A DNA stretch of 64,000 bases from Dehalococcoidia bacterium (GTDB taxonomy: Bacteria; Chloroflexota; Dehalococcoidia; UBA2979): positions 1,863 through 65,862 of the forward strand of contig JAQWLS010000009.1 of the NCBI GenBank assembly GCA_029247135.1, written 5' to 3'. The notes under the pieces were generated by a model. That model did not search any database. It had not been told where the DNA came from and saw only the letters and a list, made by a program, of their open reading frames with translations. Of this stretch, positions 2,204-46,613 are shown one piece after another. Both the position numbers and the translations under genes were made by a program. How positions within the stretch are numbered: the stretch's first letter is position 1; the number at the start of each line of letters is the position of its first letter.

Positions 2204-3115
2204 CTAGCTATCTCGTCTTCGAATTGGATCAAGTCTCTCGGCCAACACATCACTCAAAAAATTCAGAGATAACAAAAGTATGGCTATAAGCGCTATCGGG
2301 CCAAGCACGTAGTGAGGTGCGAATCTTGTATACCTACCTCCGTCCAATAGTAGCTGACCTAAGGTGGCATTCGGAGGTGCCGTGCCAAGACCCAAGTAAT
2401 TCAAAGCTGCCATCGTCAACACAGACGCGACCACCGCTAACGGCAACGCTACTGCAAACGCACCAAATGTGTTCACCGAAACATGACGCCATAAAATACG
2501 TCGCTCGGTTGCGCCAAGACACCGAGCAGCCGTCACATAGTCCCGCTCACGCTCACGCAGCACTCCGGCCCGGGCTAACCGTGCCATTTCATCAACACTA
2601 TAAATAGCAATTGCAATTCCAAGTGGCACGACTCCGCGACCTAAGTAATCACCTAAAATTGTGACCACTAAAATCGCAATCAAAATGCCCGGAAACGCGA
2701 GCAGCGTATCTACGCCACGCATGATCAAGATATCAGTTAAGCCGCCTCGCCACCCAGCAAGATAACCGAGCGCAATACCAACTATCCAACCGGCTACGAC
2801 TGCGCCAACTCCAACTATTACAGTCCTTCCCAGGCCGGACGCATTTCGCGCAAGTAAATCACGAGATATATGATCCGTCCCCATTGGGTGTTCCCAAGAA
2901 GGTGATTGGTTTTTTGGCACATTCTCAATCCAATTTGGGTCAGTGCCCCAAAGGAGTGGAACCAATGTGCCAAATAATAATAGAGTTGTAAGTCCAAATA
3001 ATGAGATGAATCCTCTAGGTGTTTTACCGACGGCACGGATCTCTTTTAGGAAAGATTTGAGAGCAGTAGATCGTACCTCAGGCGCAAAAAGCGGATCTCC
3101 TACACTCGCCGACAT
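2204..3115 (-). CDS. ABC transporter permease, DppC/OppC-like, tandem paralog 2
   Basis: 303-aa polytopic membrane protein with the BPD_transp_1 EAA-like region (VDEMARLARAGVLRERERDYVTAARCLGA). It is near-identical over long runs to the adjacent upstream copy. Confidence 0.85.
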   Translation of the reverse strand: MSASVGDPLFAPEVRSTALKSFLKEIRAVGKTPRGFISLFGLTTLLLFGTLVPLLWGTDPNWIENVPKNQSPSWEHPMGTDHISRDLLARNASGLGRTVIVGVGAVVAGWIVGIALGYLAGWRGGLTDILIMRGVDTLLAFPGILIAILVVTILGDYLGRGVVPLGIAIAIYSVDEMARLARAGVLRERERDYVTAARCLGATERRILWRHVSVNTFGAFAVALPLAVVASVLTMAALNYLGLGTAPPNATLGQLLLDGGRYTRFAPHYVLGPIALIAILLLSLNFLSDVLAERLDPIRRRDS

Positions 3116-3207
3116 CCTAGGCTCCTTTTTTTACACCAAGATGAACTCTTAGGCCAAGTCTTACCATTATGTAATCTACGTAGGCCTTAGTTAGCTGGCC
3201 AGTGGCA

Positions 3208-4107
3208 TTAGCCATCTCGTCTTCGAATTGGATCGAGTCTCTCCGACATCACGTCACTCAAAAAATTCAGAGATAACAAAAGTATCGCTAGAAGCGTAAC
3301 CGGACCAAGCACATAGTGAGGCGCAAATCGCATATAGCGACCTCCATCCAGTAGAAGCTGACCTAAGGTGGCATTCGGAGGTGCGGTGCCAAGACCCAGG
3401 TAATTCAAAGCTGCCATCGTCAACACAGAAGCTACTACCGCGAGCGGCAGCGCTACTGCAAACGCGCCAAATGTGTTCACCGACACATGTCGCCATAAGA
3501 TACGTCGCTCAGTCGCACCAAGGCACCGAGCAGCTGTCACATAATCACGCTCACGCTCACGCAGCACTCCGGCCCGGGCGAGCCGTGCCATGCCTGACAC
3601 ATTAAAAATAGCAATGGAGATTCCAAGTGGTATGATCCCGCCTCCCAAAATCGTTAATACTACAATCGCAATCAAAATGCCAGGAAACGCCAGCAGCGTA
3701 TCTACTCCGCGCATGATGAAAATATCGGTTAGACCTCCTCGCCACCCAGCAAGATAGCCAAGTGCTATACCAACTATCCAACCTGAGATCACGGCCCCGA
3801 TTCCGACCACTACTGTTCGCCCCAAACCAGAGGCATTTCGCGCAAGCAAATCACGGGATATATGATCCGTGCCCATTGGGTGTTCCCAAGAAGGTGATTG
3901 ATTTTTTGTCACATTTTCAATCCAATTTGGATCAGCACCCCAGAGCAATGGGACTAGAATCGCAAATAAAAATAAAAGTGATAAGCCAAATAATGAAATA
4001 AATCCTCTAGCTGTCTTGCCAACGGCTCGTATTTCTTTTAGCAGGGCGCTCAGAGTTGACTGAGGTATCTCGGACGCAAACAGAGGATCGACTGTGTTAG
4101 CTGACAT
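3208..4107 (-). CDS. ABC transporter permease, DppC/OppC-like, tandem paralog 1
   Basis: 299-aa ORF. It shares the identical C-terminal roughly 85 aa and the 32-aa run KNQSPSWEHPMGTDHISRDLLARNASGLGRTV with 2204-3115. It differs mainly at the N-terminus and by a 4-aa indel in one TM loop. Confidence 0.85.
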   Translation of the reverse strand: MSANTVDPLFASEIPQSTLSALLKEIRAVGKTARGFISLFGLSLLFLFAILVPLLWGADPNWIENVTKNQSPSWEHPMGTDHISRDLLARNASGLGRTVVVGIGAVISGWIVGIALGYLAGWRGGLTDIFIMRGVDTLLAFPGILIAIVVLTILGGGIIPLGISIAIFNVSGMARLARAGVLRERERDYVTAARCLGATERRILWRHVSVNTFGAFAVALPLAVVASVLTMAALNYLGLGTAPPNATLGQLLLDGGRYMRFAPHYVLGPVTLLAILLLSLNFLSDVMSERLDPIRRRDG

Positions 4108-4108
4108 C

Positions 4109-5074
4109 TTACGCCTCCGCTTTTCCGCCGAGACGAATTCTCGGATCTAGCCCAACGTATAACAGGTCCGTTATTAAATTAACGACCAAAAATATAATAA
4201 CTAGTAGCAAAGTGATGCCCTGCATCATCACATAATCTCGCTCACGCACTGCGCTCACTAATGCACGGCCTACACCCGGCCAGGTAAACACTTGCTCAAT
4301 TACAAGAGTACCCGCCAATACACCCCCTACCTGTAACCCCATAATTGTGACGACGGGAATGAGACTCGGCTTCAAAGCATGTCGAATCATGACGGTACGT
4401 TCACGGAGACCCTTAGCGCGAGCCGTTCGGATGTAATCTTCGGTCAATGTATCTAAAATCGACTGCCGTGTATACCGAGAAATCTGAGCCGCAACAATAC
4501 TACCTAACGCTATCGTAGGAAGTGCCAGATGCTTAAGTGCATCTAACGGATCTTCAGTGAACGGTACCCTCCCAGATGCCGGTAATATCTTAAGTTGAAC
4601 AGCAAAAATCAAAAGATACAGAAGACCCGCGATAAATGACGGAATACCTATGTTGATTCCAGTCCATAAGGAAGCAATATAATCCCACACTCCGCCTCTG
4701 TTCACGGCCGCCAGTATTCCTAATACCACGCCCCACACAAAGCCGTAAGTTAATGCGAATAATGCTAATTCAATCGTTGCCGGGAAAGCACTGTATATGA
4801 TGTCAGCTGCTGGGATACCCTTGTTCATTGAAATACCAAAGTCGCCCTGTATAGCGTTCCCAAGCCAGCTGAAATACTGCACATGAAAGGGGTCATTCAG
4901 ACCCATACGCTCCCGAGCGAGTTCATATGCCTCTTGGCTAGTCTGATTCTCACCACTCGAAGCTAAAAGCGCCGGGTCGCCCGGTATCAGCCTCACGACC
5001 ATAAAAACTAGAAACGATGCCAGGATCATCACCGGTATCATCTGAGTGACTAAACGGTGCACGAAATACTGCAT
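4109..5074 (-). CDS. ABC transporter permease, DppB/OppB-like
   Basis: 321-aa ORF with six predicted TM segments and the EAA-like motif (ARAKGLRERTVMIRHALKPSL). It is the first gene of the minus-strand operon and overlaps the next gene by 1-2 nt. Confidence 0.85.
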   Translation of the reverse strand: MQYFVHRLVTQMIPVMILASFLVFMVVRLIPGDPALLASSGENQTSQEAYELARERMGLNDPFHVQYFSWLGNAIQGDFGISMNKGIPAADIIYSAFPATIELALFALTYGFVWGVVLGILAAVNRGGVWDYIASLWTGINIGIPSFIAGLLYLLIFAVQLKILPASGRVPFTEDPLDALKHLALPTIALGSIVAAQISRYTRQSILDTLTEDYIRTARAKGLRERTVMIRHALKPSLIPVVTIMGLQVGGVLAGTLVIEQVFTWPGVGRALVSAVRERDYVMMQGITLLLVIIFLVVNLITDLLYVGLDPRIRLGGKAEA

Positions 5075-5292: not shown

Positions 5293-7689
5293 ATGAGTCA
5301 CGCATTTTCGGACATTCGCGTATTAGATCTATCGACCAATTTATCAGGTGCATTCGCAGCTCGATTTTTTGGAGACTTCGGAGCCGAAGTAATACTTGCT
5401 GAAAATGAGGCAGGACACGCACTCCGCAAGTCCAAAGTACTCCATGCCTATGCCAATTGGAATAAAAAATCAATCCAGATCCAAGACGATGATGAGCTCG
5501 ATGCCTTGATAAAGAGCAGCGATATCATCATCACAACTGAAATTAATAAAAAAGATGAGCTCTTCGCTCGAGTCAGCGAGAAAAGACTTCGTAGCTCGGT
5601 TCACCTATCTGTCACCCCGCATGGTCTAGATGGCAATCTTGCGGGAGTCCCTGGGAATGGCCTAACGGCTTCAGCACGAACAGGGTTCTCACATATTAAC
5701 GTGTATGAAAATGAGCCACCTCTGCAATTACCAGTCAATCTGACGGGTTTCATTGCTGGAGTATGTGGATTTATCACATCTGCGGCGGTTGCACTACAAA
5801 TGAGAAGTTCGGGTCTTGGCGATCTAGTCGATGTAAGCGAAGTTGAATCTCTTTCTCTCGCGTCTGCACCATGGGCCATTCAAGCCATCTTTGAAAATCG
5901 AGGATGGGCGAGAGGCGTACTCGGTGGCAAAGCACGAGGTATCCCCGGACCTCTCTGGGAAGCCAAGGATGGCCTTATTAATTTTGGCTTGGGTGATTTT
6001 AGGAATTGGACTGAGTCCATGAGAGTACTAGGCGTGGAAGAATATGCTGAAAATACCGATCTCATTCCAGATATAGGACGTCATGGCAATCCACAACTTC
6101 TAGAAGTTGTGGCGGCCGTTACTAGAACTGTGCCAAGCAAGAATCGTAAAGATCTATTCCTTGCGCTTTGCAAATTGCGCTCAATCACGGGAATGGTTCA
6201 GGATATGTCGGATATCGAATCGTGCGATCATCTAAATGCGCGAGACTATTTTCGCACCACGAATATCGATGACAAATTGGTCAAATTTCCGGGTCCATCA
6301 GCGCACTTATCCCCTCTCAAGTGGGAGCTACGATCTGATGCACCTTCGCTTGATCAAGATCGTGATCAAATAGATATCAAGCGAAACTCTGTCGCAATCA
6401 AAAATCCTAGTTCAATAGCGATGTCATCGGATGGACCACTAGCTGGAAAAAAAGTGCTCGCATTCACGCACGCCTGGTCAGGCACGTTCGCAACTGAGCT
6501 GTTAGGCCTCCTGGGAGCTGACGTGGTTCAAATTGAGGCCCCACACCGGGTGGATGTTTGGAGAAGAGTAAGTAATAAGGTGCCTGAAGGTGTGCGAAAT
6601 ACCGATATCGATCAACACTTTCTGAATACGCAAGGTCTGTATAATTCAGCGAACTTAAATAAACGTGCAATAACACTGGACATGAGAACGCCGGAAGGAC
6701 AGGAAATATTTTGGCAGCTCGTACCCCATTTTGACATAGTTATGGACAATTTCACACCGCAAATTTTGCCGCGGTGGGGAATTACACTGGAAACGCTCGC
6801 TGAAAAACGCCCTGGTATCGTATTTGCGTCATTATCTGCTTACGGCGCTACCGGACCATATCAAGAATTTCCCGGAAATGGCGGCACGACTGAACCTATG
6901 TCCGGCCTGTCGTCAATTCATGGCTATGAAGGTGATCTGGGGATGAACACGGGAGGAATGATTCCCGATCCAATATCCGGATATTTCACAATTGCTTCAG
7001 TTATAGCCGCGCTACATGAGTCGAGCAAAACCGGAGAAGCGCAACGCATCGAAGGTTCGATGCTCGAATCTCTCACAGCAATTGTCGGCGATGCACTAGG
7101 TGAATATCAGCTCAGCGGTGAGGTTCCCAGACCGCATGGCAACAAACACCCTGAAATTGCCCCGCACGGTGTGTACCAAACCAAAAATAGTGAATGGATT
7201 GCGATTTCAGCCGATAATGAAATCGCCTGGGATAACCTCGCCAAGCTATTAGGACTTACTGAAGATTCACAATTCAAAAGCCGGCAACAACGAAAAGAAA
7301 ATGAATCTCTTCTAAACGAAATCATAGGTAAATGGGCCCAAAATCAATCAGCACAAGGCATGGAAAACCAACTAACTGAATTAGGCGTATGTGCTGCACG
7401 GGTAGCTGAACCTTACAAGATATATAGCGAACCTGATGCTAATTTCCTCTCGAGAGATTTTTTATCGTATATTAAGCATCCAGAGACAGGAGTCAACGTA
7501 CTCCCCGCACGTGCCTGGAAGTTTGAAAGTATTAAATCATCTGAAGTTCGTCCGGCCCCCTGTGTCGGTCAACATAGTAAAGAAGTGTTGCAGGAATATT
7601 TAAATATCACCGATGAGAAATATCAAGAACTGATTGAGAACACCGTAACCGGAACAATATACGACTACGAAAGGTACAAACAAATATGA
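5293..7689 (+). CDS. Fused tandem family-III CoA-transferase (two CaiB/BaiF domains in one 798-aa polypeptide)
   Basis: Domain 1 starts with the canonical MSHAFSDIRVLDLSTNLSGAFAARFFGDFGAEVI. Domain 2 restarts at about aa 385 with LAGKKVLAFTHAWSGTFATELLGLLGADVVQIEAP. The stop overlaps the next start (ATGA at 7686-7689). Confidence 0.8.
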   Translation: MSHAFSDIRVLDLSTNLSGAFAARFFGDFGAEVILAENEAGHALRKSKVLHAYANWNKKSIQIQDDDELDALIKSSDIIITTEINKKDELFARVSEKRLRSSVHLSVTPHGLDGNLAGVPGNGLTASARTGFSHINVYENEPPLQLPVNLTGFIAGVCGFITSAAVALQMRSSGLGDLVDVSEVESLSLASAPWAIQAIFENRGWARGVLGGKARGIPGPLWEAKDGLINFGLGDFRNWTESMRVLGVEEYAENTDLIPDIGRHGNPQLLEVVAAVTRTVPSKNRKDLFLALCKLRSITGMVQDMSDIESCDHLNARDYFRTTNIDDKLVKFPGPSAHLSPLKWELRSDAPSLDQDRDQIDIKRNSVAIKNPSSIAMSSDGPLAGKKVLAFTHAWSGTFATELLGLLGADVVQIEAPHRVDVWRRVSNKVPEGVRNTDIDQHFLNTQGLYNSANLNKRAITLDMRTPEGQEIFWQLVPHFDIVMDNFTPQILPRWGITLETLAEKRPGIVFASLSAYGATGPYQEFPGNGGTTEPMSGLSSIHGYEGDLGMNTGGMIPDPISGYFTIASVIAALHESSKTGEAQRIEGSMLESLTAIVGDALGEYQLSGEVPRPHGNKHPEIAPHGVYQTKNSEWIAISADNEIAWDNLAKLLGLTEDSQFKSRQQRKENESLLNEIIGKWAQNQSAQGMENQLTELGVCAARVAEPYKIYSEPDANFLSRDFLSYIKHPETGVNVLPARAWKFESIKSSEVRPAPCVGQHSKEVLQEYLNITDEKYQELIENTVTGTIYDYERYKQI

Positions 7690-10600
7690 GCTTCCAAAAA
7701 ATATTGATCGCTAACCGTGGTGAAATTGCGATACGCATAATGCGAGCCGCAAATGATCTTGGAATTCAAACAGTAGCTATATATTCAGAGGATGATTCGA
7801 CTTCATTACATAGAACTATTGCTGACGAGAGTTTTGCTCTTTCCGGTAGAGGTGTGCCGGCATATCTCGATATGGACACAATTATTGATGGTGCAAAAGA
7901 AATGAATTGTGATGCCGTCCACCCAGGTTACGGATTCTTAGCTGAGAATTCACAGTTTGCAAAAAAATGTGCCGAACAAAATCTAACTTTCATCGGACCC
8001 GAGGTTGAACATCTTGAATTGTTTGGAGATAAAGGACGTGCACGAGCGGCCGCCACAGCCGCTGGAGTCCCAATTCTTAAGGGTATTGACCATTCTGTTT
8101 CGCTTGAAGAGGCACAAGAATTTTACTCAAGTCTTGGGGCAGATGCGGGCATGATGATCAAGGCTGTTGCTGGTGGCGGAGGACGAGGATCGCGAGCTGT
8201 AACCGATGCACTTGAAATAGAAGAAGCCTATAAAAGATGCCAGTCGGAGGCAACCAGCGCCTTTGGTAATGGAGAACTCTATGTGGAAGAATTCATTCAA
8301 CAGGCAAGACATATTGAGGTTCAAATTCTTGGAGATAAAAACGGGAATATCATCAACCTTGGCGAACGTGAATGCAGTGTCCAACGACGATATCAAAAAA
8401 TAGTTGAAATTGCGCCTGCTCCCCATCTTCCCGAGCGGCTGCGTGACGACATTATCGAAGCCGCCCAACGTCTTGCCCAAAGTGTAAATTATTCGAATCT
8501 CGGCACCTTTGAATTTCTCGTGAACACCGACGCGTCTGACGGTGGCGATCCATTTTCATTCATTGAAGCAAATGCTCGGCTCCAGGTCGAACATACCGTC
8601 ACAGAGGCTGTGACCGGTGTAGATATTGTGCAAACCCAAATTGAACTAGCTGGCGGAACACTACTTGCAGAGCTCGGATTAGATGACCCGGATATCGGAG
8701 TACCTCGAGGGTTTGCTATCCAAGCTCGTATAAATATGGAGACACTCGGTGTGGACGGAACCGTGCGCCCAGCAGGAGGAACTCTCCGTTCGTACGATGC
8801 ACCAAATGGCCCAGGTGTCCGAACCGATGGGTTTGGATATGCGGGTTACACAACCAGTCCAATGTTCGATTCATTACTTGCAAAAGTAATTACACATTCA
8901 CCGTCTAATAAATTTAAGACTGCTGTACAGCGATCACTTCGTGCGCTTTCTGAATTTCGAATAGAAGGCGTAGCCACAAATATCCCCTTCTTGATGAATG
9001 TTCTAACAAACACGGACTTCATTGATGGATCGGTACATACACGATGGGTCGATGAAAAAATAGCTGACCTCGCAATAGCAGATACTGAGAGCCAACAAAA
9101 ACGCTGGATTGAAAGTGCAGAGGCACCAGTCCCTGTGGCCGCAGGTCAACAGGCAAGCCCGCTCACTGGGACCGCTCCAGTCATGGTAGACACATCAGAC
9201 CCTTTGGCACTTTTTAGTTATGACCGTCAGGTGAAAGAAGCTGAAAAAGTTGAGCTCCCGGCAGAGGATCCGGGAGCTAGTCTGATAGGCCCTGATGGAT
9301 CTATTGGAGTCGGCGCTCCAATTCAAGGAACGATCATTCAAATCTCCGTCAGCGAAGGAGATTCGATACGCATGGGCCAGGAAATGCTGATTATGGAAGC
9401 CATGAAAATGGAGCACGTAATTAAGGCTGATGTAAGCGGAATCGTTAAAAAAATCAATGTTGAACCGGGAGACATCATTGTCGAGGGTCATCCATTAATT
9501 TTTGTCGAAGAAGGTGAATTGGACGAAGCCAGTTTCGAAGAGGAAGAAGCCATAGACCTTGATTACATCCGACCTGATCTAGAAGAAGCCTACGCTAGGC
9601 ACGCATTCACCCTCGATGAGAATAGACCCGAAGCTGTAGCAAAACGATATGGACGTGGCTATCGAATGCCGCGTGAAAATATCGCGCAACTGGTTGATGA
9701 AGGAACATTCAAAGAATATGGACCGTTAGTGGTAGCACGGCAACACCAACGATTTAGCAGCGAGGAACTCAGAAAAAATACTCCGGCAGATGGTCTCGTA
9801 TCAGGTATCGGCTCAGTGAATGGAAAACACTTTTCCCCTGAGCAGGCTCGGACAATGGTTATATCCTATGACTACACCGTACTTGCTGGGACGCAAGGTG
9901 GGCGTAACCACTACAAACAAGATCGTATGTTCGAGCTCGCACAGAGATTTAAAATTCCACTAGTCTTTTTCACTGAAGGTGGGGGTGGACGTCCAGGGGA
10001 TGATCGGATCGGGCCTGGAGTGGCGTTCGATACCCATACATTCACACAATTCTCTCAGCTTAGTGGCTGGATTCCACTCGTAGGAATCACGAATGGGCGG
10101 TGCTTTGCAGGCAATACTGCACTCTTGGCCTGTTGTGATGTAATCATTGCGACTGAAGGATCTACGGTTGCTATGGGCGGGCCAGCGATGGTTGAAAGTG
10201 GCGGCCTAGGTGTATACACACCAGAAGAACTCGGTCCGATGTCATTCCAAGTGCCAAATGGAGTGGTTGACATTCTGGTTAAAGATGAAGAAGAAGCTGT
10301 GGATGTTGCTAAAAAATACCTATCGTATTTCCAAGGCCCGATAGATGAATGGGAGGCTCCCGATCAGCGGCCTCTTAGACATATTGTGCCAGAAAACCGA
10401 AAACAACTATATGACATGCGTGAAGTAATAAACACGATCGCCGATAAAGATTCAGTACTTGAAATACGGGAAAAGTTCGGTATCGGTATTATCACGGCCT
10501 TCATGCGAATTGAGGGTAAACCCATGGCGGTGATAGCTAATAATCCTCATCATATCGCTGGCGCAATTGACTCAGATGGAGCTGACAAGGGTGCTCGTTT

Positions 10601-11123
10601 TGTTCAGCTATGTGACGCATTTGATATTCCGATTTTAAGTTTGATGGATTGTCCAGGAATGATGGTAGGTCCGGATGTTGAATCTACTGCATTGGTCCGG
10701 CACTGCGTCCGTATGTTTAATGCCGGTGCAAATCTTACAACGCCGATGTTCCTCACAGTTGTTCGCAAGGCCTACGGACTAGGTGTACAAGCTATGTGTG
10801 GTGCTAGCTCCTTTGTAGGATTCTTCTCAGTCGCATGGCCCACAGCAGAATTTGCGGGTATGGCAATTGAAGGGTCTGTAAAACTCGGCTATCGCAAGGA
10901 GCTGGAAGCAATAGAAGATCCAGCTGAACGACTAGCTGAATATCAAGATCGAGTAGATCGTGCATACGAAAGCGCAAAGGCTGTTAACGCTAGCGCTGGT
11001 TATGGCATTGATGACGTAATCGATCCGGCAGATACACGATCGTGGCTTGTCATGGGACTAAATAGTGTCCCCACGCCGCCCGAGCGTACGGAAAAGAAAT
11101 ATCCCTTTATTGATACCTGGTAG
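7686..11123 (+). CDS. Single-chain biotin-dependent acyl-CoA carboxylase (biotin carboxylase + BCCP + carboxyltransferase, 1145 aa)
   Basis: The N-terminal BC domain has MSFQKILIANRGEIAIRIMRAA, the GGGGRG loop and the ATP-grasp. The biotinyl domain has the EAMKM motif (about nt 9395-9410). The C-terminal roughly 520 aa is an AccD/PccB-like carboxyltransferase (GGGGRPGDD..., CPGMMVGP...). The domain order is as in long-chain acyl-CoA carboxylase (LCC)-type enzymes. Confidence 0.85.
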   Translation: MSFQKILIANRGEIAIRIMRAANDLGIQTVAIYSEDDSTSLHRTIADESFALSGRGVPAYLDMDTIIDGAKEMNCDAVHPGYGFLAENSQFAKKCAEQNLTFIGPEVEHLELFGDKGRARAAATAAGVPILKGIDHSVSLEEAQEFYSSLGADAGMMIKAVAGGGGRGSRAVTDALEIEEAYKRCQSEATSAFGNGELYVEEFIQQARHIEVQILGDKNGNIINLGERECSVQRRYQKIVEIAPAPHLPERLRDDIIEAAQRLAQSVNYSNLGTFEFLVNTDASDGGDPFSFIEANARLQVEHTVTEAVTGVDIVQTQIELAGGTLLAELGLDDPDIGVPRGFAIQARINMETLGVDGTVRPAGGTLRSYDAPNGPGVRTDGFGYAGYTTSPMFDSLLAKVITHSPSNKFKTAVQRSLRALSEFRIEGVATNIPFLMNVLTNTDFIDGSVHTRWVDEKIADLAIADTESQQKRWIESAEAPVPVAAGQQASPLTGTAPVMVDTSDPLALFSYDRQVKEAEKVELPAEDPGASLIGPDGSIGVGAPIQGTIIQISVSEGDSIRMGQEMLIMEAMKMEHVIKADVSGIVKKINVEPGDIIVEGHPLIFVEEGELDEASFEEEEAIDLDYIRPDLEEAYARHAFTLDENRPEAVAKRYGRGYRMPRENIAQLVDEGTFKEYGPLVVARQHQRFSSEELRKNTPADGLVSGIGSVNGKHFSPEQARTMVISYDYTVLAGTQGGRNHYKQDRMFELAQRFKIPLVFFTEGGGGRPGDDRIGPGVAFDTHTFTQFSQLSGWIPLVGITNGRCFAGNTALLACCDVIIATEGSTVAMGGPAMVESGGLGVYTPEELGPMSFQVPNGVVDILVKDEEEAVDVAKKYLSYFQGPIDEWEAPDQRPLRHIVPENRKQLYDMREVINTIADKDSVLEIREKFGIGIITAFMRIEGKPMAVIANNPHHIAGAIDSDGADKGARFVQLCDAFDIPILSLMDCPGMMVGPDVESTALVRHCVRMFNAGANLTTPMFLTVVRKAYGLGVQAMCGASSFVGFFSVAWPTAEFAGMAIEGSVKLGYRKELEAIEDPAERLAEYQDRVDRAYESAKAVNASAGYGIDDVIDPADTRSWLVMGLNSVPTPPERTEKKYPFIDTW

Positions 11124-11142: not shown

Positions 11143-12744
11143 TTAATCAAGGTATTGATAGGCTGGAATCGTAAGAAAATCGACGAACTCGTCGCTGAGA
11201 ACCAATCGATCTAATATTTCCGCCGCGTCATCAAAATGCTGATTTTGTTCGATATTGAGAATCGCAAGCTCTTGAGTCCGAAGCTCTGAATATAAATCCG
11301 AAGTAATAATTCGGCCATCATCGAGCGGCACAGCATGAATAATCCACTGCCAAAGCTGCGCGCGACTGATTTCAGCGGTTGCAGCATCCTCCATCAGATT
11401 ATTAATCGCAGCCGCCCCGTTGCCACTTAACCATTGATTTATATATTGCAGAGCTACCGAAATATTGAGCCGAACCCCCGCTTCAGTTGTGTCCCCCTCA
11501 GTGAGATTCGCTCCGCTCAGCGCTGCAGCATCAGCCAACACATCATCGCGTTGCCTATCCTTCTGATTATCGTTCTCCCCAAGTACCTGTTGAAACGAGG
11601 CTCGCGCAGTTGGTTCAAGATCAGGGTGTGCTATCCAAGTACCATCAAATCCATTTTGTGACTCTCTGTCTTTATCGGCCTTCACTGCCGCGAGTGCCAT
11701 CTCGTTCAACTCTGCATCTCTTCGGCTAGGAATAAATGCAGACATCCCGCCCATCGCATGAGCTCCGCGCCGATGGCAAGTCTTTACAAGTAAATCTGTA
11801 TATGCGCTCATAAACGGAACAGTCATCCCAATTTGAGCTCGGTCTGGAAGGGCAAACTCACGACGATTTCTAAATCTCTTAATCACACTAAAAATATAAT
11901 CCCAGCGACCCGCATTTAAGCCTGAGATATGCTCTCGTAACTCAAAAAGAATTTCGTCCATCTCATAGGCAGCCGTGATAGTTTCAATCAAAACAGTAGC
12001 CCGTATTGAACCACGACTGATACCTAATTTATCCTGACTGAAATTGAATACACTGTTCCATAACCTAGCCTCTAAATGCCCTTCTAACTTGGCTAAATAG
12101 AAATACGGACCAGTGTTTCGTGCGAGTCGCTCTTCAGCATTGTGAAATAAATAAAGTCCCGCATCGAAAAGTGCCGCCGAACATGGATTCCCATCTACGA
12201 ACAGATGCTTTTCCTCTAAGTGCCAACCACGAGGTCGAACAATGAGCGTGACGTCATCCTTAATCAGTTTGTAAGACTTACCGTTAGGTTCGTCCAAAAT
12301 CATGTCCCCACGAACTGCATCAGCAAGATTAATCTGAGCTTCAACCACATTTTCCCAAGTGGGTGAAAGTGAATCCTCCAGATCTGCCATAAACGCGTCT
12401 GCAGCAGAATTAAGTGCGTTAATCATCATTTTTCTATCGCACGGGCCTGTGATCTCAACCCAACGCTTCTCTAAATCTTCAGGGCAATCAGCTACAACCC
12501 AATCACTCTCACGAATACCAATAGTCTCACTCAAAAAATCAGGTAACTCACCAGTGTCAAACTCATGCTGACGTGTAATACGCGCCTCCAAAAGCTCAAG
12601 CCGAGCACTATTGAACTCGCGTTGCAAAGATGCAATGAATTTCAGGGCATCAACACTTAATATATTCTTCCATTTATCAGGAAAAATACCTCTAATCTCA
12701 ATTCCTTCAGCTATTTCTTGAATCAATGGACTTGAATTGGACAT
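11143..12744 (-). CDS. aceB: Malate synthase A
   Basis: 533-aa ORF of the length and architecture of malate synthase A, with conserved catalytic-region motifs. It is convergent with the carboxylase gene. Confidence 0.8.
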
Positions 12745-12847: not shown

Positions 12848-13120
12848 TTAACCTCCACCAAGTGGCGGCACCAAATAGATATCACTATCAGCAGCAACGG
12901 TTTCTGTTAACCCCCTCGAATCCAGAATCGAACCATCGATGGCAACAGCAAGATCTGATCTCAAACCATCTGAGGTAATAATCTGTGCAGTCAGTTCCGG
13001 ACAGATAGCTTCAAGATTTCTGAAAACTTCCCTCAAAGTAGTTCCTGTCACCTCCACAGAATCACGCATTTCACAAAAAGTTCGTAACGCGTTAGGAAGG
13101 TGAATAATCGGCATAAACAC
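12848..13120 (-). CDS. MoaD/ThiS-like ubiquitin-fold sulfur-carrier protein (C-terminal GG)
   Basis: 90-aa ORF ending ...LVPPLGGG immediately before the stop. It lies 10 nt downstream of the XDH-family gene on the same strand. Confidence 0.65.
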   Translation of the reverse strand: MFMPIIHLPNALRTFCEMRDSVEVTGTTLREVFRNLEAICPELTAQIITSDGLRSDLAVAIDGSILDSRGLTETVAADSDIYLVPPLGGG

Positions 13121-13130
13121 TCAAAAATTC

Positions 13131-15446
13131 TTAGGACTCAAGCTCAGCTAACTCTCTGAGAATACTCTCAGGATTGGCCGGAAGGCTACTGACCCGAATA
13201 CCAACAGCATCATAGATTGCGTTCGCAATAGCTGCTAATGGAGGGACAATCGGCACCTCTCCGACTCCTCGAACTCCAAACGGATGTCCGGGATTTGGAA
13301 CTTCAACCAGCACCGTGTCGATCGCTGGAAGGTCATTTGCAACCGGCATTCGATAATCAAGAAAAGATGAATTAGCCATCGACCCATCATCGTTATATAC
13401 ATACTCCTCGTTCAGTGCCATACCTATACCCTGCACAGCGCCACCTTGTATCTGGCCCTCAACATACGCGGGATGAATTGCTCGCCCCACATCCTGAATA
13501 GCCGTATATCTAAGCACCGTCACCTTGCCAGTATCTCTATCGACATGGACATCAGCGATATGTGCGCCAAAACACGCGCCGACTTTACCAACATTCGTGG
13601 ATACGAGATCTGCCCGTCCCTGTACCATTCCACCAGTTGCTGGAAGTTTTGCGGCCGCATCCTTAAAGGTCATCACAAGATCGCCTGGTCCATGCAAAGA
13701 CGCATCTATCGGGCTGTAATTTACATCATCAACTGATACTTCCCATATTTTTGCGATCCGTTCCTCGAGCTGGTTGCTGATATCCACGGCAGCTTGGTAG
13801 ACCGCCCAGCCGGTGGCAAAAGTCGTCCGACTCCCACCAGTATTACCGGTATAACCGATTGTGTCGGTATCCCCCACAAGGGAATTAATATCTTCGTAGT
13901 TAATGCCAAGAGTGTCCGCAAATTGCATTGCCAGTGAAGCTCTCTGACCTCCGATATCCACTGAGCCCGTAATGAGCGTTACCTTGCCATCCTCATGAAC
14001 ATTGGCATATGCGCTTGACTCGCCCCCGCCATTTTGCCAAAAACCCATAGCGACCCCACGACCCACGTCTTTTTGAGTTATTTCCGCACGATAATGTGGG
14101 TGTTCACTTGTGGTGGTAATTACCTCACGAGATCCTACGGATCCATGCGTTGCACCATCACTTCTGCGGTCGCCTTCAACAGCGGCATTCATATCACGAA
14201 GCTCCATGGGATCAATATCAAGCATCTCAGCCAATTCATCCAACACAGCCTCAACCGCAAATTCTGAAGCAGGTGCGCCTGGAGCACGATATGCAGCCGT
14301 CTTCGGTCGATTGAGCACGATATCCAATCCAAGTATTCGCTGATGGGGAACAACATACGGACCTAGGGCACATCGTGCTCCGCCAGCCACAGGCGATCCC
14401 GGATAGGCGCCTGCCTCGTACTCTAATCGAATGTCGGCTGCTACTATTTTACCTTCACGCGTAGCACCGATTTTCACAAACGATCGGGTACCAGATGTGG
14501 GTCCTGTGGCCTCCAACACCTCAGTTCTATTCATGGTTACTTGGACAGGTCGACCAGATTTACGCGATAAAAGGGCCGCTATTGGTTCTAAATAGACAAC
14601 GGTCTTACCTCCGAAGCCTCCACCAATTTCAGCAGGAATAACTCGCAAGTCACCTAAACTTATACCAAGCACCCGACTCACATTCTGTCTGATGCCAAAG
14701 GCACCTTGCGTACTTGTCCAGAGTGTTATCTTTCCGTCCTGATTCCAAATCGCTGTGGCATTGTGGGTCTCTATATATCCCTGATGACTCATCGCGGTCT
14801 CGTATACTCGTTCCAGCACCACTTCAGCTTGAGAAAATCCCTCCTCAATATCACCGAATCCCATTTCAACGGTTCTGGCGATATTTGACGGCCTGCCATC
14901 GACTGGTTGAAATAAATCTTCTACAAGAGAATCAAGTCCATCATCGTGAAGAATTGGAGCGTCAGGTGCGAGAGCGTCATCAATAGTCACAACTGGCGGT
15001 AGTACTTCGTACTCTACCTCAATCAGATCAAGTGCATCCTCAGCTATATGCACGTCGGTAGCAGCTATCGCAGCAACCGGATGCCCCTTGAACAGGACCT
15101 TACGGCGCGCCATCAGCCTTTCAATGTCCCACTGTGCCGGCATTGGTCCACGCAAAGTCTGTAATATGGCTTCAACAGGCTCGGGGAAATCGTCACTGGT
15201 TACAACGGCCAGCACACCTGGAAGCGCCAGGGCTTTCGAAACATCAATATTCTTAATAATTGCATGCGCATGGGGGCTTCGCTTGACTCGGCCGACAATC
15301 ATATTTGGTAATCGCACGTCCGCACCGTATATGGCTCGACCCGTGACTTTATCAATTCCATCCGGTCGCACCGTATTTGTTCCTACTGACGAAATTTTTG
15401 GCTCTAACATAGTCATCTGCATTACTTCCTTAAAATACGATGGCAT
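13131..15446 (-). CDS. Xanthine dehydrogenase/aldehyde oxidase family molybdopterin-binding large subunit (CoxL-like), orphan
   Basis: 771-aa ORF with Ald_Xan_dh_C and C2-type motifs (GGGFGGK, EIGGGFGGKT, GQGxxT region). No FeS or FAD subunit genes are adjacent. Confidence 0.8.
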   Translation of the reverse strand: MPSYFKEVMQMTMLEPKISSVGTNTVRPDGIDKVTGRAIYGADVRLPNMIVGRVKRSPHAHAIIKNIDVSKALALPGVLAVVTSDDFPEPVEAILQTLRGPMPAQWDIERLMARRKVLFKGHPVAAIAATDVHIAEDALDLIEVEYEVLPPVVTIDDALAPDAPILHDDGLDSLVEDLFQPVDGRPSNIARTVEMGFGDIEEGFSQAEVVLERVYETAMSHQGYIETHNATAIWNQDGKITLWTSTQGAFGIRQNVSRVLGISLGDLRVIPAEIGGGFGGKTVVYLEPIAALLSRKSGRPVQVTMNRTEVLEATGPTSGTRSFVKIGATREGKIVAADIRLEYEAGAYPGSPVAGGARCALGPYVVPHQRILGLDIVLNRPKTAAYRAPGAPASEFAVEAVLDELAEMLDIDPMELRDMNAAVEGDRRSDGATHGSVGSREVITTTSEHPHYRAEITQKDVGRGVAMGFWQNGGGESSAYANVHEDGKVTLITGSVDIGGQRASLAMQFADTLGINYEDINSLVGDTDTIGYTGNTGGSRTTFATGWAVYQAAVDISNQLEERIAKIWEVSVDDVNYSPIDASLHGPGDLVMTFKDAAAKLPATGGMVQGRADLVSTNVGKVGACFGAHIADVHVDRDTGKVTVLRYTAIQDVGRAIHPAYVEGQIQGGAVQGIGMALNEEYVYNDDGSMANSSFLDYRMPVANDLPAIDTVLVEVPNPGHPFGVRGVGEVPIVPPLAAIANAIYDAVGIRVSSLPANPESILRELAELES

Positions 15447-15527: not shown

Positions 15528-16487
15528 CTAAACCTGTTTCGAACAACGAAACCCGACGTTACTAGCTGTGCTATCAGGAGAAACGCCAACCCGAGCAGCT
15601 GGCCGATACCTTGCACAATAGCTGGCATGACACAAAAAAGATCCGCCTTTTTGTACTCTTAAGTTCCCTGTAGCTGGGCCCGTGGGGTCAACTGCAGGAG
15701 ATAGGCTTGAGTCTGCAAACCCGAACCAGTCAGCACACCACTCCCAAACATTACCGGTCATATTATGAAGACCATACCCATTTTTCGGAAAATGATCAGA
15801 GGGACAGGTCCCATACCACCCATCGTCTTCCGTATTACGTGTCGGGAAAACACCCTGCCACGTGTTAGATAGATACTTACCATCCGGATTTAACTCATCA
15901 CCCCACGGAAATAAAGCTCCATCTAATCCACCTCGCGCAGCGTATTCCCAAGAAGCTTCCGAAGGTAATTCTTTCCCTAACCAACTCGCATAGGCCACTG
16001 CATCAAACCAACTGACGTGCACGACAGGATGCTCCATGCGATCCCTCAGAGTGCTGTGTGGACCCTCAGGATGCTGCCAGGTAGCCTTAAAAACCTGTCG
16101 CCACCAAGGTGCATCGGCCACCCCTCGCGTGGGCTCGAAGTCATCAGGAAGCAATCCAGCAAAAACAAATGACCAATCTCGTTGTTCTGCCGTCGTGATA
16201 TATCCAGTCGTATCGATAAACGACATAAAATCACCGTTCGTCACGGTATAGGTATCCAATAAAAATTCCGAAACGGAAACAGACCGAACTGGACCTTCTC
16301 CATCAGCCGCATAAGACATGGGATCCTCTGAGCCCATACGAAACACTCCGCCAGATATTAGTGCCATCTGAGTTCGTGAATCTTCGGATGAACTTGAGCG
16401 ATTAATCACCTGCTGACTAGGTGAAATAATCTGATCGAAAACGCCTTCATCAAGATTTGGCACACAACATGGACACTTTTCAGCCAT
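15528..16487 (-). CDS. Formylglycine-generating enzyme (FGE/SUMF1) family protein
   Basis: The C-terminal FGE-sulfatase signature (GGSFLCHASYCARYRPAARVG, RVIRGGSW-like core) is present, with an N-terminal CPCC. No sulfatase gene is adjacent. Confidence 0.75.
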   Translation of the reverse strand: MAEKCPCCVPNLDEGVFDQIISPSQQVINRSSSSEDSRTQMALISGGVFRMGSEDPMSYAADGEGPVRSVSVSEFLLDTYTVTNGDFMSFIDTTGYITTAEQRDWSFVFAGLLPDDFEPTRGVADAPWWRQVFKATWQHPEGPHSTLRDRMEHPVVHVSWFDAVAYASWLGKELPSEASWEYAARGGLDGALFPWGDELNPDGKYLSNTWQGVFPTRNTEDDGWYGTCPSDHFPKNGYGLHNMTGNVWEWCADWFGFADSSLSPAVDPTGPATGNLRVQKGGSFLCHASYCARYRPAARVGVSPDSTASNVGFRCSKQV

Positions 16488-20671: not shown

Positions 20672-20747
20672 TGGTGCGCCGAGAGGGATTCGAACCCCCG
20701 ACTTGCGGTTCCGAAGACCGCCGCTCTGTCCCCTGAGCTACCGGCGC
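20672..20747 (-). tRNA. tRNA-Arg (anticodon TCG)
   Basis: Hand-folded cloverleaf. Acceptor GCGCCGG/TCGGCGC, anticodon stem GCGGT/ACCGC with loop CTTCGGA, T-arm GGGGG-TTCGAAT-CCCTC, encoded CCA, 76 nt. Confidence 0.8.
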
Positions 20748-20758
20748 ATTGCTATATC

Positions 20759-20850
20759 TGGCGGAGAGAGAGGGATTCGAACCCTCGAATCAAGTTACCC
20801 CGATTACACGCTTTCCAGGCGAGCCCGTTCAACCACTCCGGCATCTCTCC
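20759..20850 (-). tRNA. tRNA-Ser (anticodon GGA)
   Basis: Type II tRNA with a long variable arm. Anticodon loop CTGGAAA, T-loop GGTTCGAATCC, encoded CCA, about 92 nt. Confidence 0.8.
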
Positions 20851-20893
20851 GTAAGATAAAACTTTAGTCTATCTCCTCGTACTGGTCATTTTC

Positions 20894-20985
20894 TGGCGGA
20901 GAGGATGGGATTCGAACCCATGAAGCGACATTCGCCGCTTACTCGTTTTCGAGACGAGCGCCTTCAACCACTCGGCCACCTCTCC
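20894..20985 (-). tRNA. tRNA-Ser (anticodon CGA)
   Basis: Type II tRNA. Anticodon stem CTCGT/ACGAG with loop CTCGAAA, long variable arm, GGTTCGAATCC T-loop, encoded CCA. Confidence 0.8.
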
Positions 20986-29953: not shown

Positions 29954-30030
29954 TGGTCGGGGTGCCCGGATTTGAACCGGGGGCCTCTTCGTCCCGAACG
30001 AAGCACTCTGCCAGGCTGAGCTACACCCCG
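29954..30030 (-). tRNA. tRNA-Pro (anticodon CGG)
   Basis: Hand-folded. Acceptor CGGGGTG/CACCCCG, anticodon stem CTTCG/CGAAG with loop TTCGGGA, T-arm CCCGG-TTCAAAT-CCGGG, encoded CCA, 77 nt. Confidence 0.8.
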
Positions 30031-31753: not shown

Positions 31754-32242
31754 ATGGAAAATTCTCAACTCACCCACCTTGATTCATCTGGCTCAGCTCG
31801 CATGGTAGACGTATCCACCAAGGACATCACCACACGCGAAGCGACGGCTCAATCAAAAGTATTCCTAAAAAAAGAAACACTCGAATTAATTACACAAGGA
31901 AATATTCCAAAAGGAGATGTTTTCGCAAGTGCCCGAATCGCGGGAATTATGGCAGCAAAGGAAACTCACCGACTAATTCCATTGTGTCACCCACTTCCAA
32001 TAACAGCTGTAAACATTGACATTAATGCCGACAATTCTGCCAATGCGCACAGTATTATTATTGCGGCCACAGTGCGGGTAAATTCTCAAACTGGGGTCGA
32101 AATGGAAGCGCTCACTGCCGCGAGCATCGCCGCTTTGACCATATATGACATGTGCAAGGCGGTTGATCGTGGTATGACGATCTCAGATGTTAAATTATTA
32201 AAGAAATCTGGAGGGCGCTCCGGTAGTTATCAGTCAGAGTGA
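31754..32242 (+). CDS. moaC: Cyclic pyranopterin monophosphate synthase
   Basis: 162-aa ORF with the MoaC motifs [16 protein letters not shown] and PLCHPLP. Confidence 0.9.
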
Positions 32243-44643: not shown

Positions 44644-45925
44644 GCGAGTAGCTGTCTGCTTAGTTTGCGATGATATGGGATTTGTCAGAGTGACGAATAA
44701 TATTGAGGATTCCCGCTTTGGACAATCTTATCCGTGCAGCTGCACAATCACCGCTCGACATGAAAGAGCTGGGAAACAACTTCTGAATCAATCAGGTTTA
44801 GGATCTCTCCGTAGACTGAATTTCGAAAACCTCATTAGCCACGGAAGGACTCAAGACGCCAAAAATCGAGATCAGTACGAGCTAGCCGTCAAAGAAGCAA
44901 AAAAATATGCAAATGAGCCGAACAAGTGGCTCACAATTATTGGAGAACACGGAAGTGGTAAAACACATATAGCCGCAGCAATTGCAAATGCCTCTCTCAG
45001 CCTCGGACGACCAACTTTGTTCTTTTCAATTCCCGACTTGATGGAGCATCTCCGCCGAGAATCACTCGGGAGAGATTTTCCTGAATCTGAAACGATGACG
45101 GTCGATCGAATATTTAATATCCCGCTATTGATTATCGATGATTGTCACTCCAAAATAAATACAACCTGGGCACAAGAAAAATTCAACCAACTTCTTAATC
45201 ACCGATGGAATGCCCAGCTGCCGACAGTTTTCACCACGCCGACTCTGGACAAAAGCATAGGTACGCGCCTGAATATTAGACTCTCAGATAACGAATCTTC
45301 AGATATTTTAGATCTAGGAATTTGGGAAACAAGCACCTACAGCTCATTAGGTGCTATGACTGAACAAGTGATCAAACAATATACGTTCGATAATTTTCTC
45401 TCGGATGGTATTGGCCTGTCTCCCCAGCAAAGCAGTGAACTGATAGGGCTGGAATCCCGCTTGAGAGAGTGGTCAATCGAACCCGATGGTTGGATTGTAC
45501 TCACAGGTAAGCATGGCGTAGGAAAAACACATCTTGCCTCAGCCATTGCAAACGTTCGCTTACATCAAGGTGATCGTGTTGCGTTTACGACCGTACCCGA
45601 TCTTCTAGACCACCTCCGAGCATCATATAACCAAGACTCACAAGACTCGTACGACCAAGTATTCCGACGTTTATTGGAAGTCCAATTACTTATTCTGGAC
45701 GATCTAGGAGCTCATAAATCCTCCGATTGGGCTGAAGAGAAAATATATCAATTAATAAATCATCGATATCTTGCCCGCAGCTGGACCGTCATAACAATGA
45801 ACGGAAAACCGAGCGAACTAGAACCACGTCTAGCAAGTAGGCTAACTTTTACTGAACTCTCTGAGGTATATAGAGTAGACGCACAAGACTTCAGAACACT
45901 GCGACCCGAAACTGAAGCTAGTTAG
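44624..45925 (+). CDS. Helicase-loader-like protein with two tandem DnaC/DnaI (IstB-type) AAA+ domains and an N-terminal Cys cluster
   Basis: Walker A x2 (GEHGSGKTH and GKHGVGKTH). Walker B x2 (LLIIDDCHSK, degenerate, and canonical LLILDDLGAHKSSDWAEEKIYQLINHRY). The N-terminus reads CLVCDDMGF...SYPCSC. The start is taken at the ATG at 44624 (aaaggaa RBS); the ORF track allows 44540. Confidence 0.7.
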   Translation: MIISNRERVAVCLVCDDMGFVRVTNNIEDSRFGQSYPCSCTITARHERAGKQLLNQSGLGSLRRLNFENLISHGRTQDAKNRDQYELAVKEAKKYANEPNKWLTIIGEHGSGKTHIAAAIANASLSLGRPTLFFSIPDLMEHLRRESLGRDFPESETMTVDRIFNIPLLIIDDCHSKINTTWAQEKFNQLLNHRWNAQLPTVFTTPTLDKSIGTRLNIRLSDNESSDILDLGIWETSTYSSLGAMTEQVIKQYTFDNFLSDGIGLSPQQSSELIGLESRLREWSIEPDGWIVLTGKHGVGKTHLASAIANVRLHQGDRVAFTTVPDLLDHLRASYNQDSQDSYDQVFRRLLEVQLLILDDLGAHKSSDWAEEKIYQLINHRYLARSWTVITMNGKPSELEPRLASRLTFTELSEVYRVDAQDFRTLRPETEAS

Positions 45926-46359
45926 GGTTTTGGCTTTATACCCTCCTGCCATTCCGCACCGTCCAGGCTCCATTCCTTTTTCCAGACAGGGACCGTCTCT
46001 TTCACACGATCAACTGCTCGCAGAGCTGCCTCAAAAGCATCCGCCCGATGGGCGGCTGAAACAGCAACAATTAAAGATGTATCTCCTATGTCTAACGTAC
46101 CGACTCGGTGCTGAATCATAACCTCGTAGACCTCGCGCTCGCCAAAAAACGAAAGTATTTCATCTCGCACATGTGAAATCTGTGTGGCCGCCATTTCAAC
46201 ATAAGCCTCGTATTCTAAACGAACGACACTATGACCCTCATGATGGTTTCGCACAACACCCTCGAAAACGATAACTGCACCTGACTCGTCAGTCTGAATC
46301 GAAGACCGAATCAAACCGGTATCAAGAACATTCTCAGTAACTAAAGGAATTTCACTCAT
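45922..46359 (-). CDS. moaE: Molybdopterin synthase catalytic subunit
   Basis: 145-aa ORF with MoaE family motifs (GAVIVFEGVVRNHHEG..., RVKETVPVWKKE). Confidence 0.85.
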   Translation of the reverse strand: MSEIPLVTENVLDTGLIRSSIQTDESGAVIVFEGVVRNHHEGHSVVRLEYEAYVEMAATQISHVRDEILSFFGEREVYEVMIQHRVGTLDIGDTSLIVAVSAAHRADAFEAALRAVDRVKETVPVWKKEWSLDGAEWQEGIKPKP

Positions 46360-46613
46360 TACGATCCGCCAGCGATAGGTGGTACTAATGCCACAGAATC
46401 TCCGTCTGAAAGCTCTGATTCATCTGAGAGTATATATTCTTCGTTAACTGCGATAGCTACCCCGGACAAGTAAGGTTTCAATTTTGGATATTGTGTTTCC
46501 AAGGCCTCTCGTAATGAGGCAACTGAAACTAGATCTTGGTCAAGCTCTACTGTTAAAAGGTCACTCTCCATGACCTCTCTTAAACCCGCGAACAGCTGTA
46601 CCGAAATTTCCAT
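46359..46613 (-). CDS. moaD: Molybdopterin synthase sulfur-carrier subunit MoaD-like (ends GGS)
   Basis: 84-aa ThiS/MoaD fold ending ...VPPIAGGS-stop. The stop overlaps the moaE start (TAATG). Confidence 0.75.
   Translation of the reverse strand: MEISVQLFAGLREVMESDLLTVELDQDLVSVASLREALETQYPKLKPYLSGVAIAVNEEYILSDESELSDGDSVALVPPIAGGS

Follow-up and report, generated by a model that had tools for sequence, protein, structure and literature searches.

Why does the gene for a molybdenum-binding enzyme subunit stand beside a gene for a sulfur-carrier-like protein, with neither of the other subunit genes of its enzyme family in view? The question is raised by a 64,000-nucleotide stretch of a Dehalococcoidia bacterium (GenBank assembly GCA_029247135.1, contig JAQWLS010000009.1, positions 1,863 to 65,862 of the forward strand), referred to here as the window. 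Its large-subunit gene, L, is of the xanthine dehydrogenase (XDH)/carbon monoxide dehydrogenase (CODH) family and is followed by a small gene whose product we call the carrier. An earlier description made from the letters alone (the sequence-only reading) had placed a 771-residue CoxL-like protein 10 nucleotides (nt) ahead of a 90-residue protein ending in GGG, and the list of open reading frames (ORFs) and Pfam confirmed this, the longest ORFs of the two genes lying on the same strand at that distance. The pairing recurs widely, whichever of the two genes is taken as the starting point, and the interpretation that we prefer, with a probability of about 0.5, is that the carrier, CysO-like and dedicated to this enzyme, delivers sulfur after activation in trans and so serves maturation of the molybdenum (Mo) cofactor of L.

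Both proteins probably start somewhat inside these longest ORFs (Table 1). Because carrier homologs have 87–88 amino acids (aa) and begin with MP, the likely start of the carrier is the ATG at 13114, giving 88 aa and a 16-nt spacer; because L homologs have ~760 aa, L probably starts at Met11 (position 15416), giving ~761 aa. A scan for terminators found none, either between L and the carrier or in the 103-nt gap that separates the carrier from the malate synthase gene, and given the 16-nt spacer without a terminator the two genes are probably co-transcribed.

The carrier gene recurs beside L in at least ten phyla

A scan with an alignment of L, using one genome per species, yielded 80 loci with L proteins 51–85% identical, in which gene content was determined within 10 kb on either side of L by six-frame hidden Markov model (HMM) scans and by an ORF caller filtered on GC content at third codon positions (GC3). 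The loci come from many phyla and groups: Chloroflexota, Poribacteria, Planctomycetota, Latescibacterota, Acidobacteriota, Binataceae, Nitrospinota, Entotheonellaceae, Armatimonadota and one deltaproteobacterial metagenome-assembled genome. In 46 of the 80 loci, spread over at least ten phyla, L is immediately followed by a carrier gene of the same orientation; in two (L013 and L018) the carrier gene is upstream of L. Genes for a flavin adenine dinucleotide (FAD) subunit, with the Pfam domains FAD_binding_5 and CO_deh_flav_C, and for an iron–sulfur (FeS) subunit, with Fer2 and Fer2_2, were found in 40 of the 80, nearly always directly upstream of L. The order FAD–FeS–L–carrier accounts for 33 loci. 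Thirteen loci and the window have L and carrier but no FAD or FeS genes (in three of the 13, L lies at a contig edge, so that upstream FAD and FeS genes are possible there), and the converse, FAD–FeS–L without a carrier, occurs in seven. L stands alone in about 25 loci, mostly from paralog clades of Dehalococcoidia.

Carrier-bearing loci are dispersed over the entire neighbour-joining tree of L, which makes the carrier ancestral in the L family, with repeated losses. The divergences of L and carrier are correlated (Spearman 0.49, 946 pairs), and the carrier evolves faster, with a median identity to the window copy of 34% vs 54% for L.

To approach the pairing from the other side, a carrier profile was searched at E ≤1e-8, which returned 4692 sequence clusters, probably including CysO-like proteins. 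Eight carriers were sampled (P0042, P0047, P0169, P0207, P0223, P0179, P0285 and P0247), picked mostly for long contigs, with P0047 as the most distant match. Each of the eight has an XDH-family L upstream of it. Six of the contexts show FAD–FeS–L–carrier, one of them with two tandem L genes and three with an extra ORF before the carrier; one shows L and carrier only, and in the remaining one the contig ends inside L and one ORF is inserted before the carrier. The L proteins of the sampled contexts score 995–1443 bits on the subfamily HMM, compared with 256 bits for Escherichia coli PaoC. The association is between one carrier subfamily and one L subfamily, and the expectation of the sequence-only reading that the small ORF would be conserved beside orthologous XDH genes held from both directions.

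These counts bear on whether the adjacency is incidental and the carrier merely the MoaD of the organism. Pfam does place the carrier in the ThiS/MoaD family, and other moa genes lie in the window: the canonical moaD–moaE pair, moaA and moaC named by the sequence-only reading were all found. However, the separate moaD overlaps moaE 33 kb away and its product is only 31% identical to the L-linked carrier over 68 residues, so the carrier is an extra paralog, distinct from the moaD–moaE pair. With the recurrence of the pairing across phyla in both searches, an incidental adjacency is effectively refuted.

The missing FAD and FeS genes probably reflect the lineage, not the family

Pfam was run on nearly every ORF of the window of 110 aa or more, leaving aside those that only shadow a longer gene in antisense, and all six frames were scanned with HMM profiles of the FAD and FeS subunits and with the E. 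coli proteins MoeB and PaoD. Neither an FeS nor an FAD subunit gene turned up in the 64 kb, an absence that reaches beyond the immediate neighbourhood of L noted by the sequence-only reading. The label of an orphan enzyme that the same reading attached to L did not survive comparison: as the 33 of the 46 carrier-bearing loci and six of the eight sampled contexts show, the usual operon of the family consists of the FAD subunit, the [2Fe-2S] FeS subunit, L and the carrier. The isolation of L in the window is most likely a rearrangement of its lineage and not a trait of the family. The relative L004, whose L is 77% identical to that of the window, keeps FAD and FeS genes divergently upstream of L, and the FAD and FeS subunits that serve the window's L are for this reason most likely encoded at another place in the genome.

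Other arrangements were seen as well. Three loci have the order FAD–FeS–L1–L2–carrier (L014, 7474-12522; L016, 6659-12541; L087, 1366-6267), with a single FAD/FeS pair for both L paralogs and the carrier after the second. L genes without FAD, FeS or carrier genes within 10 kb occur in L006, L007, L009, L015, L017, L019, L022, L026, L032, L035, L037, L038, L040-L043, L046, L047, L050, L054, L058, L067, L076, L077 and L080; if active, such lone L proteins must share subunits encoded elsewhere.

The carrier is a beta-grasp protein of the CysO branch

The carrier matches Pfam ThiS (PF02597) with 32.6 bits at a cut-off of 22.5, and its AlphaFold2 model, built from an alignment of 45 sequences, is a beta-grasp fold (pLDDT 84, pTM 0.71). 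In a Foldseek search of the Protein Data Bank (PDB) with this model, the top match was CysO of Amycolatopsis orientalis (4n6e_B, TM-score 0.88), followed by CysO of Mycobacterium tuberculosis (3dwg_C, 0.87), the MoaD-related protein 1v8c of Thermus (0.84), SAMP1 (about 0.78) and E. coli MoaD (1fm0_D, 0.69); the Foldseek probability was 1.00 for CysO, SAMP1, MoaD and Urm1. The ubiquitin-like fold of a sulfur carrier, which the sequence-only reading had supposed, is thus what the model predicts.

Profiles point to the same branch. A profile of 29 diverse members of the carrier family matched two CysO sequences at E 1e-18 and 1e-16, and Pyrococcus furiosus MoaD with 21 bits only. The NCBIfam models moaD_arch and SAMP1 were matched by all 29 members; the bacterial moaD model TIGR01682 was matched by eight of the 29, and not by the window copy at E 0.01. 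For the window carrier itself the best NCBIfam model is SAMP1 (NF041918), at 33.4-33.6 bits and thus well short of the cut-off of 60, and moaD_arch (23.5 bits) also falls below its curated cut-off. Given its similarity to CysO, SAMP1 and moaD_arch, and its own scores below the curated cut-offs, the carrier belongs to the CysO/SAMP1/archaeal-MoaD branch of the ThiS/MoaD superfamily and is an equivalog of no named family.

Across phyla, only M1, P7, P39, G87 and G88 are invariant in the carrier family, and the alignment contains no conserved cysteine or other ligand residue. As an alternative to a sulfur carrier, the sequence-only reading had considered a small redox partner; because no cysteine is conserved, the carrier is not an FeS redox partner.

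The Gly-Gly itself is part of a motif, h-h-P-x-h-[GAS]-G-G, that is universal across phyla. Among 167 proteins of the family, 42 end at the Gly-Gly and 47 carry one extra residue; the remainder have non-conserved tails of 2-62 residues. The window carrier ends exactly in GGG and needs no trimming. An invariant Gly-Gly followed by variable tails resembles the pattern of ubiquitin-like precursors and processed carriers, among them the sulfur carriers QbsE and HcyS. Since the Gly-Gly is invariant and what follows it is variable, the alignment argues that a free Gly-Gly carboxylate is the functional group of the carrier and that a peptidase would be needed in most lineages. The housekeeping MoaD of the window extends one residue past its Gly-Gly and may itself need C-terminal trimming.

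The precursor-like tails, together with SAMP1 as the best NCBIfam model, would also suit a ubiquitin-like modifier of the SAMP/TtuB type that is conjugated to L or to other proteins for regulation. We regard this as very improbable: the SAMP1 score of 33.6 bits is little more than half of the cut-off, no lysine is evidently conserved in the carrier, and neither an E1-like activating enzyme nor a JAMM deconjugase is linked to it in the neighbourhoods searched below.

L is an intact Mo hydroxylase of an uncharacterised subfamily

L carries the Pfam domains Ald_Xan_dh_C, MoCoBD_1 and MoCoBD_2 (E 1e-29 to 1e-63; 101.5, 214.7 and 211 bits, respectively, all above the cut-offs). Its best NCBIfam models are those of the alpha subunit of 4-hydroxybenzoyl-CoA reductase (4-HBCR) and XdhA, with every equivalog model far below its cut-off: 455.8 bits for TIGR03194 (4-HBCR alpha) at a cut-off of 994.55, and 306-325 bits for the CODH models at cut-offs of 950-991. 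The closest solved structure is 4-HBCR alpha (1rm6_A, 317 bits), with the CO dehydrogenases next.

In the alignment of the L family, Q247 (in STQG), the GGGFGGK loop (G275-K281), R387 and E730 (in GVGE) are invariant, and in the alignment Q247, GGGFGGK and E730 coincide with the corresponding motifs in 4-HBCR and CODH. L thus shares with 4-HBCR alpha (1rm6) and CoxL (1n5w, 1zxi) the three-domain Mo subunit and the catalytic Glu, Gln and GGGFG; it differs from them in its score on the 4-HBCR model (456 bits vs a cut-off of 995) and in having Ala at the Cu-binding Cys of CODH, the loop AYRCSFR of CODH reading AYRAPGA in L (within AAYRAPGAP; alignment to 1zxi_B). Because E730, Q247 and GGGFGGK are invariant and the Cu-binding Cys is replaced, L is predicted to be a catalytically intact Mo hydroxylase of an uncharacterised subfamily and not a CO dehydrogenase.

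Related systems of dedicated carriers and accessory proteins

The nearest precedent comes from tungsten (W) enzymes. MoaD genes strictly adjoin genes of tungsten aldehyde:ferredoxin oxidoreductases (AORs), with a predicted role in W cofactor synthesis (Iyer, Burroughs & Aravind 2006, PMC1779556), and in Aromatoleum aromaticum the MoaD-like AorD and AorE do not form part of the enzyme as purified (Arndt et al. 2019, PMC6365974). Like the L-linked carrier, the AOR-linked MoaD is an extra gene strictly beside that of a pterin-cofactor subunit, is not the housekeeping moaD and is scattered across phyla, and its function in cofactor maturation is likewise a prediction. In contrast, its partner AOR has a fold unrelated to that of XDH/CODH-family L; AOR neighbourhoods often hold MoeB, MoaE and MoaA (PMC1779556), which L–carrier loci do not; and the L carrier is closer to CysO than to MoaD. 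Because its partner enzyme is of the XDH family and not AOR, the L carrier is best seen as an analogue of the AOR-linked class and not as a member.

CysO provides the best structural and profile matches and shares with the carrier an N-terminal IP..LR..tgG motif and an ILPAxxGG C-terminus. Its gene stands with those of CysM, Mec+ and MoeZ, and it passes sulfide on to metabolites; unlike CysO, the carrier has only L and the FAD and FeS subunits as conserved gene partners, and neighbours beyond the FAD and FeS genes differ between phyla. MoaD, which acts with MoaE, has in common with the carrier its superfamily, the C-terminal Gly-Gly and the link to Mo-pterin enzymes, but the carrier differs from it in the separate moaD–moaE pair of the window, the lower TM-score of ~0.69, the few TIGR01682 matches and the lack of an adjacent MoaE. 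A further comparison is XdhC/PaoD, encoded like the carrier by an accessory gene directly after the Mo-subunit gene (paoABCD in E. coli) and presumed to act on the cofactor of L; its fold is unrelated to that of the carrier, and the known route by which the Mo cofactor of bacterial XO-family enzymes is sulfurated and inserted pairs XdhC with a cysteine desulfurase (NifS4).

In the open-access literature, we found no description of a sulfur carrier or MoaD associated with XDH-family or CoxL-type enzymes, and the work of Iyer et al. on AOR-linked MoaD (PMC1779556) does not mention the XDH family. What is new here is a putative enzyme-dedicated sulfur carrier on the XDH family, from the CysO branch; AOR-linked carriers were already known.

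A proposed dedicated sulfur carrier and its alternatives

Our preferred interpretation draws on the CysO-type fold of the carrier, its invariant and often masked Gly-Gly, its two-way synteny with L and its independence from moaD–moaE. On this interpretation, the carrier would be the ancestral, dedicated fourth gene of a widespread XDH-family operon (FAD, [2Fe-2S], L, carrier), and in the Dehalococcoidia (SAR202-like) lineage of the window the FAD and FeS genes would have moved away while L and carrier stayed together. The C-terminal Gly-Gly would first be exposed, in most homologs by trimming of the short tail; a MoeB/MoeZ-type E1 encoded elsewhere would adenylate the carrier, which would then be turned into a thiocarboxylate, and its sulfur would go into maturation of the Mo cofactor that L receives, either as the dithiolene sulfurs of molybdopterin or as the terminal Mo=S ligand, which only enzymes of the xanthine oxidase (XO) family need. 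SAMP1-type proteins can supply dithiolene sulfurs as a MoaD isoform; the terminal Mo=S ligand is indispensable for the activity of XO-family enzymes. Co-transcription of L and carrier would couple sulfur supply to synthesis of the apo-enzyme. The activation of the carrier, the formation of its thiocarboxylate and the sulfur acceptor are steps that we infer.

A bolder version, which we consider rather unlikely, has the thiocarboxylate deliver the terminal sulfido ligand to L, either instead of XdhC and a cysteine desulfurase or by feeding them; more radically, the sulfur of the carrier would be inserted into the substrate (thiolation). The carrier might possibly also re-sulfurate desulfo enzyme in vivo.

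Several results weigh against a dedicated sulfur carrier. To our knowledge, the only bacterial route to the Mo=S ligand is XdhC with a cysteine desulfurase, and the existing moaD–moaE pair leaves no evident need for another carrier in molybdopterin synthesis. About 75% of carrier homologs carry non-conserved residues past the Gly-Gly and would need a peptidase. Partner genes were sought within 10 kb on either side in the 80 loci, in the eight annotated contexts and in the entire window. An E1 of the MoeB/ThiF type, for which the sequence-only reading had proposed a search, was not found there apart from one weak match (E 4.6e-4); a motif scan for JAMM peptidases gave 17 matches, none of them convincing, and no cysteine desulfurase was linked to the carrier. 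MoaD–MoaE lies near the carrier in only one of the 80 loci (L065), and an XdhC-like gene occurs in only two (L043 and L079); the six-frame scan of the window with E. coli PaoD and MoeB found neither XdhC nor an E1-like enzyme. Furthermore, no alignment column separates carrier-linked from carrier-less L (at thresholds of ≥85% vs ≤40%), so nothing on L marks dependence on the carrier, and MoaD-type carriers go unmentioned in a 2026 review devoted to the Mo sulfido ligand (PMC13653126). The missing E1 is weak evidence in this respect, because moaD rarely adjoins moeB even in canonical operons (Iyer et al., PMC1779556).

At locus L079 (Planctomycetaceae, positions 3005-4140), the gene immediately after the carrier is an XdhC/PaoD-like ORF that matches E. 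coli PaoD at E 1.2e-8, making this the only locus in which both candidate maturation factors stand together. Given this arrangement, carrier and XdhC may cooperate rather than replace each other.

The same absences could be read in favour of a carrier without sulfur chemistry, acting as an accessory subunit or as an L-specific assembly chaperone that binds apo-L, for example by inserting its Gly-Gly tail as MoaD does in MoaE, and keeps L competent for cofactor insertion or complex assembly. Such a protein would have no use for the E1, JAMM peptidase or MoaE that are not linked to it, and the tails in ~75% of homologs would be tolerable if no C-terminal activation took place. The carrier is linked more tightly to L than to the other two subunit genes, its gene holds the position of xdhC/paoD directly after the Mo-subunit gene (as in E. 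coli paoABCD), and beta-grasp proteins are often adaptors (PMC1949818). However, an invariant Gly-Gly in an hhPxhxGG motif with non-conserved tails is the hallmark of activated carriers and not of adaptors, and thiocarboxylate formation is proven for the nearest relatives of the carrier. If the interface were obligate, the fast evolution of the carrier (34% vs 54% median identity) and the lack of any column of L that tracks it would be odd, and the analogous AorD and AorE are absent from purified AOR (PMC6365974). We therefore hold a chaperone or accessory subunit to be a possible explanation of low probability.

That the nearest characterised relatives (in CysO–CysM and CysO–BexX) donate sulfur to metabolites and not to cofactors, and that the carrier pairs one-to-one with just one L subfamily, would also fit a substrate-level sulfur donor or acceptor in the pathway of the enzyme. 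Sulfide from the thiocarboxylate (carrier-COSH) would either take the place of the labile Mo-OH, turning hydroxylation by the enzyme into thiolation, or feed downstream C–S bond formation, as CysO does for CysM and BexX. Against both, no enzyme dependent on pyridoxal phosphate (PLP) of the CysM kind, nor any other sulfur-accepting enzyme, is conserved beside the carrier: in the eight Pfam-annotated contexts, no PALP enzyme (CysM family), JAB peptidase or ThiF-family gene is annotated there. L also keeps the standard hydroxylase residues Q247 and E730, and we know of no precedent for Mo-dependent thiolation. A substrate-level role is improbable on these grounds, less so than a ubiquitin-like modifier and more so than a chaperone.

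With its spread over at least ten phyla, the L-linked carrier is a testable candidate for a new route of cofactor maturation or sulfur delivery. The L subfamily is abundant in uncultured lineages, among them dark-ocean Dehalococcoidia of the SAR202 type and symbionts of sponges (Poribacteria, Entotheonella, Latescibacterota), and CoxL-like genes in such lineages are routinely read as CO or xanthine dehydrogenases (PMC5395668). As a second, independent example beside AOR-linked MoaD (AorD, AorE), the L carrier suggests that pterin enzymes generally have sulfur carriers of their own. Heterologous expression of L enzymes may fail without this fourth gene.

Features of the window and neighbouring genes

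Table 1. Positions of the L–carrier pair, housekeeping cofactor genes and other features in the 64,000-nt window.
Feature	Position	Strand	Remarks
Large-subunit gene L	13131..15446	(-)	Longest ORF 771 aa; Mo-binding subunit, XDH/CODH family; stop TAA at 13131-13133
Carrier gene	12848..13120	(-)	ORF from GTG 13120, 90 aa; ends LVPPLGGG-stop; CysO/MoaD-type beta-grasp
Spacer from L stop to carrier ATG	13115..13130	(-)	16 nt; no terminator
Housekeeping moaD	46359..46613	(-)	Context, outside the operon; 84 aa, ends AGGS; overlaps moaE start
moaE	45922..46359	(-)	Context; large subunit of molybdopterin synthase; Pfam MoaE, E 9e-31
moaC	31754..32242	(+)	Housekeeping cofactor gene; ORF/Pfam survey
moaA	55182..56234	(+)	Housekeeping cofactor gene; ORF/Pfam survey
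FGE-sulfatase/EgtB-like gene	15528-16487	(-)	Sulfoxide-synthase fold; 81 nt upstream of L
Malate synthase A	11143..12744	(-)	Directly downstream of the carrier
Family III CoA-transferase	5293..7689		Two-domain, 798 aa
Single-chain biotin carboxylase	7686..11123		1145 aa; domains BC, BCCP, carboxyltransferase
tRNA cluster	20675-20985		Three genes, two of 89 nt
Fourth tRNA	29957-30030		Just after gyrA
Replication cluster	42435-45925		DnaB helicase, DnaD/DnaB_2-domain protein, 461-aa protein
ORF without Pfam match	48060-49265		401 aa
ORF without Pfam match	61520-62449		309 aa

Directly upstream of L lies an FGE-sulfatase/EgtB-like gene. A functional link to L is unlikely, because an ORF of similar size in that position was seen only in the closest relative, L001.

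On the other side, malate synthase A is convergent to a CoA-transferase and a biotin carboxylase whose genes overlap by 4 nt. Homologs of the double CoA-transferase lie near L in nine other loci, which hints at CoA-thioester metabolism around the L enzyme family. By its gene content and its database matches, the window belongs to a marine, SAR202-like Dehalococcoidia genome. Expanded families of both XDH/CODH paralogs and CoA-transferases have been described in SAR202 Dehalococcoidia (PMC5395668). A link between L and the 1145-aa carboxylase was considered and rejected, since the carboxylase had no match when the proteins of the window were compared with the loci by BLAST; ORFs of 1048-1082 aa near L in other loci match the class I aminoacyl-tRNA synthetase of the window, and those of ~1140 aa looked, as judged by eye, like methionine synthase.

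An Rfam scan of the window returned no Mo-cofactor riboswitch and only four tRNAs, of which the two 89-nt genes in the cluster probably have a long variable arm. In the replication cluster, the 461-aa protein contains two IstB/DnaC-like AAA+ stretches and is apparently a duplicated helicase loader. Of the two ORFs without a Pfam match, the 309-aa one lies inside a row of tryptophan biosynthesis genes.

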